In this document: one piece after another, positions 49,974 through 56,233 of the stretch
How the letters are laid out: every line of letters starts with the position of its first letter
Numbering within the stretch: the first letter of the stretch is position 1
From: Methanoregula sp.
GTDB lineage: Archaea > Halobacteriota > Methanomicrobia > Methanomicrobiales > Methanospirillaceae
Length of the DNA: 64,000 nt
Direction of reading: 5' to 3'
Assembly: GCA_028679075.1 (NCBI GenBank)
Contig: JAJRCF010000011.1
Span: forward strand, 9,217-73,216
The notes under the pieces: model-generated
Told to the model about the DNA's origin: nothing
Database searches by the model: none
The model's input: the letters and a program-made list of their open reading frames with translations, nothing else
Program-made: the position numbers and the translations under genes

Positions 49974-50150
49974 CGATCGTGGAGACAATAAGAAAAAGTC
50001 AGCGTCAATTGATATAATATTTTTTAATTTATCCTGCAATCAAAATGTTAATAAATTTTATTTCCATCGCTATTTTGAATAGTAAATAATTATCCGGACC
50101 CGATTCGTTATTTTTCCCGGTTAACATAAATATCACATGCGCCAATCTCT

Positions 50151-51152
50151 GTGAGAATCATCATCCCTTCGCCGGGACAACTCCCCAGGTTCTATATGCC
50201 GGACGTTTCAGCTCGTGCCAGTATCCACCGGAAAAGTATGCAGGACTATTACGAAGGGCTCGCATCCGGGCGGGACGGCCGGCACGAGGATGCATTGACC
50301 TCTTTTTCCCGTGCACTGGCATCCGATCCCACCCTTGCCATTGCCTGGGTGGGCCGGGGGTTTGCGCTCGGGAAGCTGGGACGGTACGAAGAGGAGATCG
50401 AGTGTTGTGACAAGGCAATCCAGCTTGACCCGCGGTGTGCTGATGCATGGGTCAACAAGGGATTTGCCTGCGGCATGCTTGACCGTTTCGATGAGAAGAT
50501 CGCGTGCTGTGAACAGGCATTGCAGATCGATCCGGAGAACGCAACGGCCTGGAACAACAAGGGTGTTGCCTTAGGGATGCTCAAAAAGTTTGAAGCGGAG
50601 ATCCGCTGCTGCGACCGTGCCCTTGAGATCCGGCCGCGGTACCTTTCCGCATGGGTCAACAAGGGATTTGCCTGCGGAAAACTGAAACGGTTTGAGGACG
50701 AAGCCGCCTGTTATGACCGTGCCCTGAAAATTTATCCGTTTTACCAGTCCGCCCTGCTCAAGAAGGGCATTGCACAGATCAACCTGAAGAACTACGAAGA
50801 GGCCATCGAAACACTGGACCGCACCCTCGCCATTGAGCACAGGAATGCACGGGCCCTGTACCGGAAAGGCCTTGCCCTCTCCATGCTGGGACGGCATGCG
50901 GACGCGATCGGGTGTCTTGAACAGGCGCTGGAAATCGATCCGTCTATTGCTGACGCGTGGGTGGTGATGAGTAACTCCTGCTTCATGATCGGACGGCTGG
51001 AAGAGTCTGCACGTGCGTTCGACCAGGCCTACTACCTTGATGTAAAGGATGTCCGCACGGGCGTTGTCAAGGGGTTATCGTTACTGAAGAACGGTAAGTT
51101 TGACGACGCGCTCCGCAGTTTTTCGGATGTGTTCGGCATCCTGCTCAGGTAA
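50151..51152 (+). CDS. Tetratricopeptide repeat protein (start may be 50196 or 50238)
   Basis: About 8 tandem 34-aa repeats (AWxNKG...AL-x-IDP); the DNA repeat GCATGGGTCAACAAGGGATTTGCCTGCGG occurs twice. Confidence 0.92.
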   Translation: MRIIIPSPGQLPRFYMPDVSARASIHRKSMQDYYEGLASGRDGRHEDALTSFSRALASDPTLAIAWVGRGFALGKLGRYEEEIECCDKAIQLDPRCADAWVNKGFACGMLDRFDEKIACCEQALQIDPENATAWNNKGVALGMLKKFEAEIRCCDRALEIRPRYLSAWVNKGFACGKLKRFEDEAACYDRALKIYPFYQSALLKKGIAQINLKNYEEAIETLDRTLAIEHRNARALYRKGLALSMLGRHADAIGCLEQALEIDPSIADAWVVMSNSCFMIGRLEESARAFDQAYYLDVKDVRTGVVKGLSLLKNGKFDDALRSFSDVFGILLR

Positions 51153-51216
51153 TTTCCGGGCCCCTCCGGGATCATGATACTCCGCCTTTTTATGCCTGTT
51201 TCACGTACAGAAAAGT

Positions 51217-52551
51217 ATGGATGTCGAGGAGTATGCCCGCAGGGGACTCGCAGAAGGTACTGAAGAAAAAACCCTGCAGGAAAAGCTGGCTGATCACATT
51301 GTCCGGATGAAAAATGCCAGCCCCTCCTATGCATCAGCGTTCGCCCGCGCCGTTATTGAAGAAGTGAAGAACACTCAAGGGTTGTCCGGCGACTTTTTTA
51401 CCTTTGAACCGGCCGGCGTCCGGATGGGCGAGTTCGGCGTGGGTTCCCGGGGAAAAGGGGATTTTTTTGCCCACCGCCAGATCGCCCGCATCATCGGGAA
51501 GACGTCTGCCTCCGTTGGTGTTGACGAGATGGACGATGCCGGTGCGGTCTGTGCCGGGGGAAAATACATCATTTGCACGGTCGACGGGATGCACTCGCGC
51601 CTTTCGGATTTTCCGTACCTTGCCGGTTTCCACGTGACCCGCGCAACGCTCCGTGACGCGTACGTGATGGGGGCAAAACCGATCATGCTCTTCTCGGATA
51701 TCCACGTTGCCGATGACGGCGATGTGGCAAAGATCTTTGATTATACCGCAGGTATCACGACCGTTGGCGAGGCAATGGACGTGCCGCTTGTCACCGGATC
51801 GACCCTGCGCATTGGTGGCGACATGGTGCTTGGCAGCCGGCTCACCGGGTGTGTCGGTGCCGTGGGCGTGGCCGAACACCTGACTGCCCGGAAGTCCACG
51901 CAGCCGGGGGATGTCCTCCTGATGACGGAAGGTGCCGGGGGCGGGACGATTGCGACAGCCGCGATCTATTCAGGGTTCCCGGAAGTTGTCGAAGAAACAA
52001 TCAACCTGAATTTCCTCATGGCCTGCGAGGCGCTGATGAAGAGCAGCGTCTTTACGCAGATCCACGCGATGACGGATGTGACGAACGGGGGGCTCCGCGG
52101 CGATGCGTTCGAGATGGCCGAGACTGCCGGCTGCCGGATCGTCATTGACGAGTCAGATATCGGCAGCCTGGTCCAGTCCCAGGTGAAGGAGATGCTCGAA
52201 GCGCTGAAGATTGATTACCTTGGCGTTTCGCTTGACTCCCTGCTCGTGGTTGCACCGGCCGGAGCTGCCGATGAGATCTGCCGCGTGATCCGGTCGGCCG
52301 GTGTCACGATGAAGCAGGTCGGGCACGTGGAAGAGGGGAAGCCGGAAGCGGTGCTCCGTGCCGGTGGTAAAGACCATGACTTCTCGCCCCGGTTCCGTGA
52401 ATCCGCGTACACTCCGGTGAAGAAGGTGGCGGATACGGAGATGCGTGACTTTGAGGAGATGAAAGCGGGAGTGGTGCGTGCCTCTGAAGCGGCGATACAG
52501 AAAAAGCAGCGGGTGCTGAGCCGGCTGCGGGCCGGGAAGGGCGGGTTTTAA
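51217..52551 (+). CDS. AIR-synthase-related protein (PurM/HypE/SelD superfamily)
   Basis: MGEFGVGSRG-x-GDF, DDAG, VDGMHSRLS, HAMTDVTNGG-x-RGD and LGVSLDSL. Confidence 0.8.
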   Translation: MDVEEYARRGLAEGTEEKTLQEKLADHIVRMKNASPSYASAFARAVIEEVKNTQGLSGDFFTFEPAGVRMGEFGVGSRGKGDFFAHRQIARIIGKTSASVGVDEMDDAGAVCAGGKYIICTVDGMHSRLSDFPYLAGFHVTRATLRDAYVMGAKPIMLFSDIHVADDGDVAKIFDYTAGITTVGEAMDVPLVTGSTLRIGGDMVLGSRLTGCVGAVGVAEHLTARKSTQPGDVLLMTEGAGGGTIATAAIYSGFPEVVEETINLNFLMACEALMKSSVFTQIHAMTDVTNGGLRGDAFEMAETAGCRIVIDESDIGSLVQSQVKEMLEALKIDYLGVSLDSLLVVAPAGAADEICRVIRSAGVTMKQVGHVEEGKPEAVLRAGGKDHDFSPRFRESAYTPVKKVADTEMRDFEEMKAGVVRASEAAIQKKQRVLSRLRAGKGGF

Positions 52552-52637
52552 AAAATATTTTTTGGGCCACGTGCGAAAAAAATTTTTGTGAACGTAAATT
52601 TTTTTAGAAATTTTTTGATACAGTGCCTGCTCTCACA

Positions 52638-52910
52638 ATTTATTTTTCCTGAGGAGTAAGGGGTCTCATGAATTATTTTTGATGAGGGGGTAGGGGGGTC
52701 ACGCAAATTTTTTAATGAGGGGTACCCCCCCTCAGTAAAAATTTTTCGTGAGGGTCTGCCCCTGTTTTCGAAACGGTTTACGACGGGACGCTGTGTTTTT
52801 GCGTGGGGAAAATCGTGAGGGGTAGGGGATGTGAGCGAAAAAATCTGATGAGGGGAGTGGGGGCTCAGGCAAATATTCTGGTGAGGGGTCGGGGGGATTG
52901 GAAACCCTGT
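52638..52910 (+). repeat. Degenerate 33-bp tandem array (A/T-tract followed by TGAGGGGTAGGGG)
   Basis: TGAGG at 52650, 52683, 52716, 52749, 52816, 52849 and 52882; one degenerate slot near 52782. Confidence 0.85.
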
Positions 52911-52982
52911 CCCACACCGGTATACGACGGAATCCAGCCCCGTAACCTCCTCTTAGATAGTGCAGATCCGGACTCATGCAAA

Positions 52983-53078
52983 ATACCTGTCACAGGTCAC
53001 TGACCTGTCCGATGCACCTGACCTGTCACGGGTCAGATACCTGTGACAGGTCAACTGACCCGTATTAGGGAGCCCTAA
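52983..53078. repeat. Palindromic 9-bp lattice of TGACCTGT sites followed by TTAGGG-AG-CCCTAA
   Basis: Eight TGACCTGT-like cores in alternating orientation; palindrome centres at 52991, 53000, 53027, 53045 and about 53054. Confidence 0.88.
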
Positions 53079-53615
53079 AACTGCGATCCAAAACAGGGGT
53101 TCTTTTCGGTTTCCAGGACCATAGCCTGTTTGAAAAACGATCGGCCATCCAATTGCGTCTATTAGCCTATATTATATTCTTCGACGGAGAAAATCCAATC
53201 CGGGCCCGTATCGGGTGGGAAAATCTCCTTATTGTATCGTTTTTTGGGAATTAGACACGTTTGAGTGGGGTCAGGCTGGTTCCCCGTTATCGGTCTCCGA
53301 CGGTGAGTGGAGTTTGTGAGAGGGTATCTTCCCGGGAGTATTCCGGAAGGATGATCTCCGACGTGAAATTTGCTTTTACGTCAGGGATGATCTTACAGGC
53401 CCCCTGTTTGTGAAAAACCACGAATGTGTTTCTGACAGTGGGGGATGTTTTAGTGGGTGGAGTGTTGGGGGTGTGGGATGAGTGGACCGGAATATTTTCC
53501 GGGCCGGGAAATTTTTTGTAAAAAAGATTTAGGAAAAAAATCTAAAAAAAATTTAGAGAAAATTTCTCAATGGAAAATTTATTGAACCGTGCTAGGTTGT
53601 ATTGATCATGAAAAT

Positions 53616-53725
53616 TGTGATGAACGGCCGCCGCCCCGAAGGGCGCCCCGCGGCGGATCAGTGACGAAAAGCAAAATACTCATTGCCCCGCCGCGCCTCG
53701 GAGAGGCCCTGAGGCGGGAGGCCTC
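53616..53725. repeat. Structured GC-rich dispersed repeat, copy 1
   Basis: CCCCGCGGCGGATCA (53646-53660) and TGCCCCGCCGCGCCTCGGAGAGGCCCTGAGGCGGG (53684-53718) are shared with copy 2. Confidence 0.85.
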
Positions 53726-53794
53726 ACAATTTTTTATGGTTTCGGTGTGAACTTGATCTGTTGATACCCGTTTCCGCAGGGTTAAAATTCCCGG

Positions 53795-54523
53795 TTATTC
53801 CCGGGGCTTCTTAGCACTCACAAAAATATTATACGCCAGTTGCGGCACCCGCTTCTCGACAAACGGCTCGATCTTGCTGGCAAGGTTGTACAGCGGGTCG
53901 ATCATGTCGATGTGGGCAAACGAGCACCACTTGACCGCAATGTCCGAGAACCCGGCCTGGTTGAACAGGTCGTTCATCTCGTCTTCATTGTAATAATGCT
54001 CGCCGAAATCCTTCATGACCACGTGCCTGACATTCATCTTCTCGCTGATCTGGTACAGTGCCGGGATGCCCCGGGTCAGGAGTTTTTTCCCAAGCGTGCA
54101 GATCGCAATCGCACCCCCGGGCCGCAGCACGCGATACGACTCCGACAACATCGTCTCCGGGTCCCTGACATAACTGAACACCAGCAGGCTGGAGACGGCA
54201 TCGAACGAATTGTTGCGGAACGGTAACGTCTCGCCATTCCCCTCGGCAAACTCACACCCGGCGCAACGGTGGCGCGCCCGTGCGGTCATCTTCCGGCTGA
54301 TATCGAGGCCGACCGCGGTCCCCCCGTGGCGGAGATACTTCTCGACAAAGAGACCTGTCCCGCACCCGATATCGAGGAGGTCGCCCTTTTCCGGCAGGGC
54401 TTTGATGAGATAATTGCTGATGTGGGTGTGGTAGTTCCGGCCGCGGGGATGATCGTAGTGGTGGTCGTACGTATCCGCAACGCTGTCATAATGGTCGCGG
54501 ATCTTCTCCTGCCTGACGGTCAC
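53795..54523 (-). CDS. Class I SAM-dependent methyltransferase (UbiE-like)
   Basis: LLDIGCGTG, GLDIS, LPFRNNSFDAV and RVLRPGG. Confidence 0.9.
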   Translation of the reverse strand: MTVRQEKIRDHYDSVADTYDHHYDHPRGRNYHTHISNYLIKALPEKGDLLDIGCGTGLFVEKYLRHGGTAVGLDISRKMTARARHRCAGCEFAEGNGETLPFRNNSFDAVSSLLVFSYVRDPETMLSESYRVLRPGGAIAICTLGKKLLTRGIPALYQISEKMNVRHVVMKDFGEHYYNEDEMNDLFNQAGFSDIAVKWCSFAHIDMIDPLYNLASKIEPFVEKRVPQLAYNIFVSAKKPRE

Positions 54524-55515
54524 GGGAAGGTCTCCTGTATTCCTGCGGTGAGTGCGCCGATCTGGATGTATTCGTTATTTGCATGCCGCATCCGGTATTC
54601 GGCATCGGCAAGGGCGATAGCAAGTGCAGGATGGTTGTACTCACGTTTCAGGACTTTCCTGATCTCGGAGAGGACCTCGCTGCCGGAAAGGCCGGAATCG
54701 ATCATCAGGGATTCGAGGCGACGGGTCGCGACCCGGACATCCCCTTCCTTGAGCGCGGCAATGGCCGATGTGGCAATGTTCCCGGTCTCTGACTGCGAAA
54801 TGGCAAACAGGTCCTGGCATTTCCCGGTCTCGAACGCGACCTGCGTGAGGAGGATCGCACGCCGCATATCGCCCGCGGAGGCCTGCACGATCAGGTCAAG
54901 GTCATCATCGGAACAGGTTGTGTTCTCCGGGTTCTCCCGGTCCTTGATCATCCGGAGATGCGAAAGCACGATCCCCTGATCGACCGGGGCAAAGAACAAC
55001 GGCAGGCAGCGCGATGTGATCGCCGGGATGATCGCGCTCTGGTTCGTTGTCGTGAAGATGAAGCGGCAGGTGTTGCTGGTCTGCTCCATGATCCGGCGCA
55101 GTGCCTGCTGGGCATCGCGGGTCAGGGTATGCGCATCCTCAAAGACCAGGAGCTTGAACTCTGCATCAAGCGGGCGCAGCGAGGCATACCACCTGATGAT
55201 GTACTTGAAATTCGTGATCAGGGACTGGCTCTTCTGGTACAGGTGGGTGTACCGCTCGTCCTGTTCGAGCAGGGCTTTTCCCTGGAGGAAGATGTCCGCG
55301 GTCTGGAACACGGTGGTGTTCTGTTCCCAGTTCTCCCCGTACAGTTCCTTTGCAAAGCATTCGATCGCAATGCTCTTCCCGGTGCCGTGCGGCCCCGAAA
55401 GGATCAGGTGAGGTACGTTCTTGGAGCCGGCAAACGAGGTGAGGTGGCGCATGACTGCGTCCTGTCCCAGGATCTCCTGTGATGAAGACGGCCGGTATTT
55501 TTCAGTCCAGAGCAT
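54520..55515 (-). CDS. rfcS: Replication factor C small subunit (divergent S2-type paralog)
   Basis: WTEKYRP, PHLILSGPHGTGKS, AQQALRRIME and ITSRC; Walker B reads FEDAH. Confidence 0.88.
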   Translation of the reverse strand: MLWTEKYRPSSSQEILGQDAVMRHLTSFAGSKNVPHLILSGPHGTGKSIAIECFAKELYGENWEQNTTVFQTADIFLQGKALLEQDERYTHLYQKSQSLITNFKYIIRWYASLRPLDAEFKLLVFEDAHTLTRDAQQALRRIMEQTSNTCRFIFTTTNQSAIIPAITSRCLPLFFAPVDQGIVLSHLRMIKDRENPENTTCSDDDLDLIVQASAGDMRRAILLTQVAFETGKCQDLFAISQSETGNIATSAIAALKEGDVRVATRRLESLMIDSGLSGSEVLSEIRKVLKREYNHPALAIALADAEYRMRHANNEYIQIGALTAGIQETFP

Positions 55516-56233
55516 GGGACAACCTCACTGTCATCTCACGTATTGCCTCTGACAAAAGATAATGATTATCGGTTGCGGAGAGGAGCCGTTCCCGGTCCGC
55601 GGCCGACAGTTCCCGGCACGCCCGGGTGATCTCCGGCAGCGCCCGGGTCAGTTCATCGACAATGGTGAGGGTCGCCCGTTGTGCCGTGCGGGACAGCGGG
55701 TTGAGGTCGACTGCAATCACCTTCTTTCCCATGGCAACCAGCGCCTCGCACCGGTCGCCGTCTTCTAAGGGAACGATGATGACATCGGCAGAGAACATTC
55801 CCTCCCTCCGGCACCACGCGCGGTCGTGGGAGAGGGGGAGCAACCGTTCGGCCTCACCGGAAAATACATCTGCCCCGGCATCCCGCAGGAGTTTCTCGAT
55901 CCGGGCAACGCGGTCTTCGGTCCGGTGGAAAAGGTTCACTTCCACGAGTGCCCCGGATGCTTTCTGCAGTTCGGCAATTTCATGTGCAGCGAGGGCTGCC
56001 GTATTCCCGTTAACCGAGATGACCGGGCGTTGGGCAGTCATCAGCATTGCCGCGGCGGTCTGTTCTGCAAGGAGTGCACTTGGTGTCGTCCGTTCCCCAA
56101 TCAGGTAGTCAAAGGCCTCGCCCCGCCCGTGGGCAGTAAGGCCTTCCATTGCCACGATCCCCGATCTGGCACATTCCGCAAGGCGCTCGCGGGTGACGAG
56201 CGAGCGGTAGCGTGGGTGATCGGGCGGTATCAT
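55502..56233 (-). CDS. pps: 4-phosphopantoate--beta-alanine ligase (phosphopantothenate synthetase)
   Basis: IPPDHPRYRSL, AHGRGEAFDYL, SVNGN, VPLEDGDR and DLNPLSRT. Confidence 0.93.
   Translation of the reverse strand: MIPPDHPRYRSLVTRERLAECARSGIVAMEGLTAHGRGEAFDYLIGERTTPSALLAEQTAAAMLMTAQRPVISVNGNTAALAAHEIAELQKASGALVEVNLFHRTEDRVARIEKLLRDAGADVFSGEAERLLPLSHDRAWCRREGMFSADVIIVPLEDGDRCEALVAMGKKVIAVDLNPLSRTAQRATLTIVDELTRALPEITRACRELSAADRERLLSATDNHYLLSEAIREMTVRLSHALD

Follow-up and report, generated by a model that had tools for sequence, protein, structure and literature searches.

Why should a gene-free stretch between two convergent genes of a methanogen carry eight short boxes of alternating orientation on a 9-bp grid, and what might recognise them? 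The boxes, here called the lattice, lie in a 64,000-nt window (the whole stretch of DNA that was analysed) on one of the 40 contigs of a 2.5-Mb, 55% G+C, 90%-complete Methanoregula genome. They occupy part of a 1,243-bp gene-free stretch (52552-53794) flanked on the left by an AIR-synthase-related (AIRS) gene (51217-52551, + strand) and on the right by a class-I methyltransferase gene (53795-54523, - strand). An RFC small subunit gene adjoins these two neighbours and an MCM gene lies further on, both within 10 kb. A sequence-only reading of the locus had proposed either a partition-type site or an operator-like array whose protein is encoded elsewhere. Comparison with relatives points to the second of these roles and away from the first: the lattice most likely binds a symmetric protein, and our preferred, though tentative, reading is that it is a cooperative binding array for a putative symmetric DNA-binding dimer, placed on the transcribed start of an orphan promoter-terminator cassette.

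The lattice in the window and in the genome

Inspection of the sequence agrees exactly with the first description of eight TGACCTGT-type 8-bp boxes in alternating orientation with one blank slot, spanning 52983..53063 on the + strand. The boxes are B1 ATACCTGT (52983-90), B2 ACAGGTCA (52992-99), B3 TGACCTGT (53001-08), the blank slot CGATGCAC (53010-17), B4 TGACCTGT (53019-26), B5 ACGGGTCA (53028-35), B6 ATACCTGT (53037-44), B7 ACAGGTCA (53046-53) and, after a 2-nt gap, B8 TGACCCGT (53056-63). A separate palindrome, TTAGGGAGCCCTAA, follows downstream at 53065..53078 (+ strand).

This arrangement is real and lies far beyond chance. Exact TGACCTGT occurs five times in the 64-kb window against 1.43 expected, with four of the five inside the 80 bp of the lattice, and the 17-mer palindrome TGACCTGTNACAGGTCA, allowing up to three mismatches, occurs three times against 0.09 expected, a count that none of 100 shuffles reached. 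A genome-wide search for the box sequence, as had been suggested, returned four lattice copies: C1:13556-13629; C10:48581-48635, which is one 18-nt unit shorter; the window lattice itself, on C11; and C36:1323-1394, where a 53-nt insert interrupts the array. All ten exact ACCYGTNACRGGT 13-mers of the whole 2.5-Mb genome fall within these four copies, and the exact ACCYGTNACRGGT half-site spacing is absent from the rest of it. Similarity among the four copies extends from about 52920 to 53108 in window coordinates.

A phase-locked array of 13-bp palindromes

The 9-bp boxes hold up as described, but the better-conserved unit is the inner 13-bp palindrome ACCYGT-S-ACRGGT, which is repeated every 18 or 36 bp and so places the array on an 18-bp grid. 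Full palindromes in the window lattice are U1 (52985-97), U3 (53021-33) and U4 (53039-51), while B3 with the blank slot, and B8, are half units. The slot that had been called blank proves not to be empty; it holds a degenerate right half-site, conserved across the family and reading CCRRTGCACC in most copies, so that the 36-bp phase is kept.

Statistics for the unit were taken from 347 palindromes in 108 elements, drawn from 125 distinct elements collected from relatives and metagenomes; since the detection rule allowed at most one mismatch, the near-invariance of the half-sites is partly built in. Centre-to-centre distances are 18 bp in 158 cases, 36 bp in 65 and some other value in 15, that is, 18 or 36 bp in 223 of 238. 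The 5-nt spacers are fixed in length and free in sequence, with 47 distinct 5-mers among 158. Full palindromes number from 2 to 12 in the collected elements, and the number shifts in whole 18-bp steps, as in the shortened C10 copy and in a 54-nt deletion described below; expansions to 7 and to 12 units were found, and two copies contain runs of near-identical 18-nt units.

Only one position of the stem, the Y/R pair, is variable. Its four combinations (TG 135, CG 88, TA 77, CA 47) equal the product of the marginals (136, 87, 76 and 48), and there is therefore no selection for pairing at this position. Tables of Y/R states in adjacent boxes likewise show no covariation. Long-range unit pairs do give apparent Y/R associations (p = 0.0002-0.013); these also join positions that are unable to pair, and we read them as subfamily structure. 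The positions flanking the boxes, which would extend a stem, show no evident complementarity in a tally of 33 elements. The centre base is C in 285 palindromes, G in 61 and T in one. The two strands are not equivalent, however: TG palindromes outnumber CA palindromes by 135 to 47 (65 elements against 17), a bias that tracks the direction of the promoter described below and would suit either a + strand RNA in which G-U pairs are tolerated or a mutation bias linked to transcription.

A promoter-lattice-terminator cassette

Upstream of the window lattice lies a promoter-like block, TCTTAGATAGTGCAGATCCGGACT (52951..52974, + strand), comprising a TATA-like box (52953-60) followed by the near-invariant TAGTGCAGATCCGG. 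A TATA-type promoter motif, TATATaaTAGTGCAgATCCGG, is present upstream, and on that side only, in 108 of the 125 elements, with the consensus ccCcaAAAtCcCCC-TATATaa-TAGTGCAgATCCGG.CT. Its spacing is tightly held. The conserved TATATaaTAGTGC block precedes the first palindrome by 26-27 nt, and the first palindrome begins 26-27 nt after TAGTGC in 89 of the 108 elements; the window copy shows a distance of 27 nt, from TAGTGC at 52958 to its first ACC at 52985. The predicted start of transcription lies 0-3 nt ahead of the first palindrome. The TAGTGCAGATCCGG-type promoter-proximal sequence is tied to a lattice in 104 of its 111 occurrences, and a search for promoter-terminator units lacking a lattice found none. 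Further upstream is a CCGGTATACGACGG motif (52917..52930, + strand; direct-repeat family D5), and many copies have one or two CGACG(G/T) words 25-35 nt ahead of the TATA box.

Promoters of similar appearance are found before tRNA genes of the same genome. The boxes TTATTAGTGCA / CTTTTATTAGTGCATAAG of tRNA-Thr and TTATTAGATAG / TTTTTATTAGATAGAC of tRNA-Leu lie about 30 nt before the mature 5' ends, and a weight matrix built from the lattice TATA region gives far higher values ahead of tRNAs than it does in windows drawn at random from the genome (Mann-Whitney p about 1e-12, with a control that was not A+T-matched).

The sequence that follows the lattice differs between subfamilies. In one, (G)GG-NN-CCCTAAA is conserved, as in the window TTAGGGAGCCCTAA; in the other, TCTCCGACGGAGA-type palindromes take its place. 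Beyond this comes a T-rich, terminator-like 3' motif, AAAACAGGGGTTCTTTTC (53090..53107, + strand), and many copies terminate in CCAAAACAGGGGTTCTTTTCATTT. Of 108 elements, 32 have the strict 3' motif no more than 250 nt from the lattice and another 59 have a T-run alone; units predicted from the 32 strict-motif copies are mostly about 110-190 nt long, with a median of 165 nt. In relatives AAAACAGGGGTTCTTTTC is also seen behind the stop codons of protein-coding genes and at the close of other non-coding units (for example at loci L016 and L017, on the minus strand), so that it looks genus-typical and is probably a genus-specific 3' end or terminator signal. An inverted version, CCCCCTGTTTGTGAAAAA, at 53400-53418 of the window, borders an insertion block here and in a relative.

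Taken together, these predicted parts describe a cassette of about 130-190 bp that is, as judged from its motifs, non-coding: promoter, phase-locked palindromes and T-rich end. A small peptide of 18 residues, with its ATG in the blank slot, was considered and rejected, its start codon not being conserved among copies. When the 771 ORFs lying up to 4 kb from the 125 elements were clustered, none proved to be truly conserved, the large clusters being spurious frames read through conserved non-coding modules. No conserved neighbour protein was detected by blastp among the flanking ORFs of 27 loci, and no consistent protein by Pfam searches of downstream ORFs. Downstream genes vary between copies and are convergent as often as co-directional. 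Nor was a type III toxin-antitoxin of the ToxI kind sustained, because a toxin ORF is not found directly downstream and the downstream genes differ and are often convergent. A scan of 50000-56000 against Rfam 15 for known RNA families gave only microRNA models, at 24-28 bits against thresholds of 63-128.

An accessory family restricted to Methanoregula and its relatives

How widely is the lattice shared? With BLAST, the genus yielded copies in 14 of 24 and then in 28 of 107 other genomes, as a rule several in each, and 16 genomes from other families of the order yielded none. A complete 2.8-Mb genome of the genus in a single contig (G041) is among those with several copies. A looser pattern, applied to genomes of the whole taxonomic family, matched 37 of the 107 other genus genomes and five genomes in three sister genera, the reversed-pattern control giving one match in 228 genomes. 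With a strict double-palindrome pattern, applied to one genome for each of 185,579 species, 32 stretches matched, 30 of them in MAGs assigned to Methanoregula, Methanoregulaceae or Methanomicrobiales. The other two are in bacterial MAGs, one Acidobacteriaceae and one Omnitrophota; both are possibly mis-binned, and the Omnitrophota MAG carries the same sample label as a Methanoregula MAG. Metagenome contigs yielded at least 119 further copies, all on contigs above 1.1 kb, which say nothing about where transcripts end. The strict pattern had no match in viral contigs, and a viral origin was rejected on this ground.

Relatives thus do carry the lattice; the sequence-only reading would have taken its absence from them as a sign of neutral slippage or template-switch expansion. 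Its distribution within the genus is nonetheless patchy, and many near-complete Methanoregula genomes are without it. On the evidence of these searches, the lattice family is an undescribed, dispersed, accessory repeat restricted to the genus Methanoregula and its family, and a full-text literature search returned nothing on intergenic repeats or small RNAs in Methanoregula.

The locus in the window illustrates this accessory nature. Among loci L081-L110, which represent 30 genomes sharing the AIRS-methyltransferase-RFC order, the AIRS-methyltransferase intergenic distance differs widely between Methanoregula species, from 8 bp to over 1.5 kb: 8-38 bp in 11, 269-568 bp in 5, and in the rest more than 1 kb or beyond the fetched flank. 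Since the region is only 8-38 bp in many relatives, its content must be accessory. Within the fetched stretches a lattice occupies this site in only three of the 30 genomes, the present one included. A full lattice is found there in Methanoregula sp. SPRUCE 506 (locus L075); in the closest relative, the syntenic copy has lost exactly 54 nt and is reduced to one palindrome. The AIRS-methyltransferase intergenic site is, we conclude, a landing pad for non-coding repeat modules.

Does the lattice act as DNA or as RNA?

We propose that a strong, tRNA-type archaeal promoter would drive the cassette, that the palindrome array, in its 18-bp phase, would start at about +1 to +3, and that a putative symmetric dimer, encoded elsewhere, would occupy the palindromes cooperatively as double-stranded DNA. 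Since the array extends over the predicted start site and roughly the first 80 bases of the predicted transcript, a protein occupying it would gate or block the promoter of the cassette itself.

An array of sequence-specific, two-fold symmetric, binding-site-like elements, as originally suggested, agrees with the family-wide data. The preference for DNA as the target comes first from the units themselves: half-sites are kept while spacer sequence is free, the 18/36-bp spacing is locked, and the unit number alters in whole 18-bp steps. It comes also from the absence of base-pair selection at the variable stem position and from the C/G centre, which suits a central C:G pair on a symmetric duplex and would be odd for an RNA triloop. 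A true hairpin, the second stem of a mini-repeat in the same genome, does change freely and in compensatory fashion between its copies. The tight coupling of promoter and array, and the lack of any conserved neighbouring ORF within 4 kb, favour a DNA array as well; the latter accords with the earlier supposition that the protein is encoded elsewhere, since no gene is consistently adjacent to copies of the family.

Several points count against a DNA array. The invariance of the half-sites owes something to the detection rule. Single palindromes are absent from all protein-gene promoters in the genome, so that there is no classical regulon or autoregulated gene. The lattice is the only transcribed part that is conserved across subfamilies, as would be expected of an RNA gene. 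The inequality of TG and CA palindromes is not predicted by a purely symmetric DNA site. Finally, an 18-bp step amounts to 1.7 helical turns, and neighbouring dimers would thus not lie on one face of the helix.

Because the lattice begins at the predicted start of its own promoter it would be transcribed, and a small non-coding RNA gene is a serious rival, close behind the preferred reading, which we hold to be possible if rather doubtful. Here a transcript of about 110-170 nt would fold into short hairpins or one long register-shifting hairpin and do its work as RNA, for instance by offering an RNA-binding protein a multivalent platform or sponge; on the + strand it would run from 0-3 nt before the first ACC to GGGGTTCTTTTC. 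The conserved tRNA-type TATA promoter at a fixed distance, the T-rich 3' end with a motif that also closes protein genes, the lack of a downstream ORF and the status of the lattice as sole transcribed segment common to all subfamilies are all as such a gene would have them. The predicted fold of the + strand is stable (-52.6 kcal/mol, z = -4.5), but the - strand folds equally well, and folding energy therefore decides nothing. With G-U allowed, 86% of palindromes can pair on the + strand compared with 61% on the -, following the promoter direction. Against this, covariation is lacking, C-A mismatches being as frequent as expected (47 observed, 48 expected); the stems are invariant in sequence, unlike those of the covarying mini-hairpin repeat; and neither the box-flanking positions, without evident complementarity, nor a centre base restricted to C or G, rather than U or A, is what a stem and loop would lead one to expect. 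The absence of an Rfam match above the microRNA noise also tells against it.

Mobile repeat, self-titrating module or partition site?

Might the lattice instead be a selfish or neutral mosaic repeat, resized by slippage, template switching or recombination and carried on mobile non-coding blocks? We think this unlikely, though some of its ingredients are present. The family is patchy (37 of 107 other genus genomes), the host intergenic region varies from 8 bp to more than 1.5 kb among species, the unit number is labile in 18-bp steps, and other repeat modules commonly flank the lattice in differing orientation and at differing distance. One pair of filled and empty sites is documented as well. 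A larger block in the window (52868..53302, + strand), consisting of the last unit of a G-string array, the lattice cassette and a second non-coding module, is 86% identical to a non-syntenic copy in the closest relative, where it forms part of an insertion of about 585 bp at a site that is empty here (C2:19365-19373). Neutral decay, however, would not leave half-sites, promoter block and a spacer length of 5 nt unchanged amid so much variation of the spacer sequence. In the one resolved insertion, the filled-versus-empty pair, no terminal inverted repeats were found at the borders and no clear target duplication, a possible duplication of RGATA being uncertain given the divergence of the two genomes. 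Mobilisation of the REP/RAYT kind was rejected, as only four copies exist in the genome and a Y1 transposase (IS200/RAYT, PF01797) was not found in the 90%-complete assembly. One clear TnpB-like match above the family cut-off is not near any lattice copy.

A further and quite improbable reading joins the two leading ones in a self-titrating module, in which the same symmetric protein would gate the promoter as DNA and be soaked up by the hairpin-array transcript. If true, archaea would have here a feedback device based on dual recognition of DNA and RNA, or their own counterpart of the protein-sponge RNAs, spread through the genus in the form of a mobile, non-coding cassette.

A centromere-like partition site, the other half of the original proposal, is very improbable, and so is a replication-origin element: contiguous repeats of mixed orientation, A/T tracts and G-string arrays beside the lattice and the RFC and MCM genes within 10 kb are all that recommend it, and the lattice is missing from most genomes of the genus, 99%-complete single-contig ones among them, its host intergenic region is near-absent (8-38 bp) in many species, and its four copies are scattered in unrelated contexts, each behind its own promoter and with no orc1/cdc6, ParA, SegAB or RHH gene consistently alongside, an accessory, mobile distribution that rules out an essential origin or chromosome centromere.

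Comparison with known systems

The proposed protein-bound array invites comparison with ribbon-helix-helix (RHH) arrays, such as the omega-repressor heptads of pSM19035, the MetJ met-boxes and the ParG tetramer boxes, which consist of short direct or inverted repeats. RHH arrays are bound cooperatively by small symmetric dimers, lie near promoters and vary in unit number. The lattice resembles them in its contiguous repeats of mixed orientation, nested palindromes, fixed period and variable unit number. It differs in its period (9/18 bp, compared with 7-8 bp), in its place downstream of the TATA box, on the transcribed side, and in having no adjoining RHH or ParA gene; it is also chromosomal, dispersed and archaeal. 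An archaeal parallel is provided by the F55 repressor of the Sulfolobus virus SSV1, whose sites are tandem repeat operators overlapping the transcription start of an archaeal promoter. The lattice similarly places its repeats at the predicted start of an archaeal promoter. In contrast to the F55 sites, its units are more numerous and palindromic, no regulated protein gene lies downstream, and a viral context is wanting, with 0 matches in viral contigs.

Among RNA systems, the CsrB/RsmZ sponges and ToxI share with the cassette a layout of promoter, tandem short repeats and terminator without an ORF, and the 2-12 units of the cassette suggest a comparable multivalency. Unlike ToxI, the lattice has no toxin gene downstream, and unlike either system its stems are invariant in sequence and without covariation. 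To our knowledge there is no CsrA-like partner in archaea. A TATA-type promoter about 26 nt upstream of the start and a T-rich 3' motif also give the cassette the outline of an archaeal small RNA gene, on sequence evidence only.

Bacterial REP/BIME elements offer a further likeness, in that lattice palindromes alternate in orientation, lie dispersed in intergenic DNA, in many cases where two genes converge, and are mixed with other short motifs. The lattice is set apart from them by its very low copy number (four per genome), its much shorter unit, its own TATA promoter and a genome without a RAYT/Y1 transposase. It is likewise unlike an archaeal origin, since its position is not conserved in relatives and its neighbours are an AIR-synthase-like gene and a methyltransferase, not orc1/cdc6.

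Why should such an element matter? Methanoregula is a dominant peatland methane producer, and almost nothing is known of its non-coding elements. The family is sharply defined and easily recognised, and fuses a promoter of predicted tRNA strength to a phase-locked palindrome array that has no gene of its own. Binding by a protein would make it an archaeal protein-DNA (or protein-RNA) array of a new kind, with a simple 13-bp code and unit numbers forming a natural series from 1 to 12; if it acts as RNA, it would represent a new family of small RNAs in archaea. Annotation of transcription units in the genus may, in addition, be helped by using the conserved promoter and 3' motif as markers.

Associated repeat modules

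Several other repeats share the gene-free stretch. Upstream of the cassette, window positions 52614-52890 hold an array with a 33-bp period, each unit combining an A/T tract and a G-string (TGAGGGG..GGGGG). Copies of about 80-84% identity occur on C36 (twice), on C38 and in the closest relative, their orientation relative to the lattice varying among loci, and analogous arrays (CAGACCTTGCTCAAAAATTTTT) lie upstream of the C1 lattice copy. A possible role for these G-string arrays is termination in both directions between convergent genes.

Directly after the lattice cassette comes a second conserved non-coding module (53087-53418), with tRNA-promoter-like boxes TCTATTAGCC and GGGAATTAGACAC and with TCTCCGACGG palindromes; over about 330 bp it shares 73% identity with the post-lattice stretch in two other Methanoregula species (L056 and L075). 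At 53615-53735 lies a GC-rich structured element with a 35-nt hairpin, which has matches on C1, C2, C11 (at about 57350 of the window), C16, C36 and C38.

The mini-repeat referred to above is about 55 nt long and has about 20 copies in the genome, often in tandem, of the form GGTCATCAGACC...GAGAAGAAC...GTTCTTCGA, with the layout (TC)CGACAGGTCATCAGACC-TGGAGGA-GAGAAGAAC...GTTCTTCGA. One copy (C36:1283-1335, locus L001) interrupts the C36 lattice within a box. Others lie inside or just after the lattices of relatives (L047, L071 and L202), and one is in the downstream module of L006. At C36:2049-2600, in the same locus L001, a gene for the TATA-binding protein (TBP) stands between the lattice copy and the G-string arrays, an arrangement that is syntenic in the closest relative (L020).
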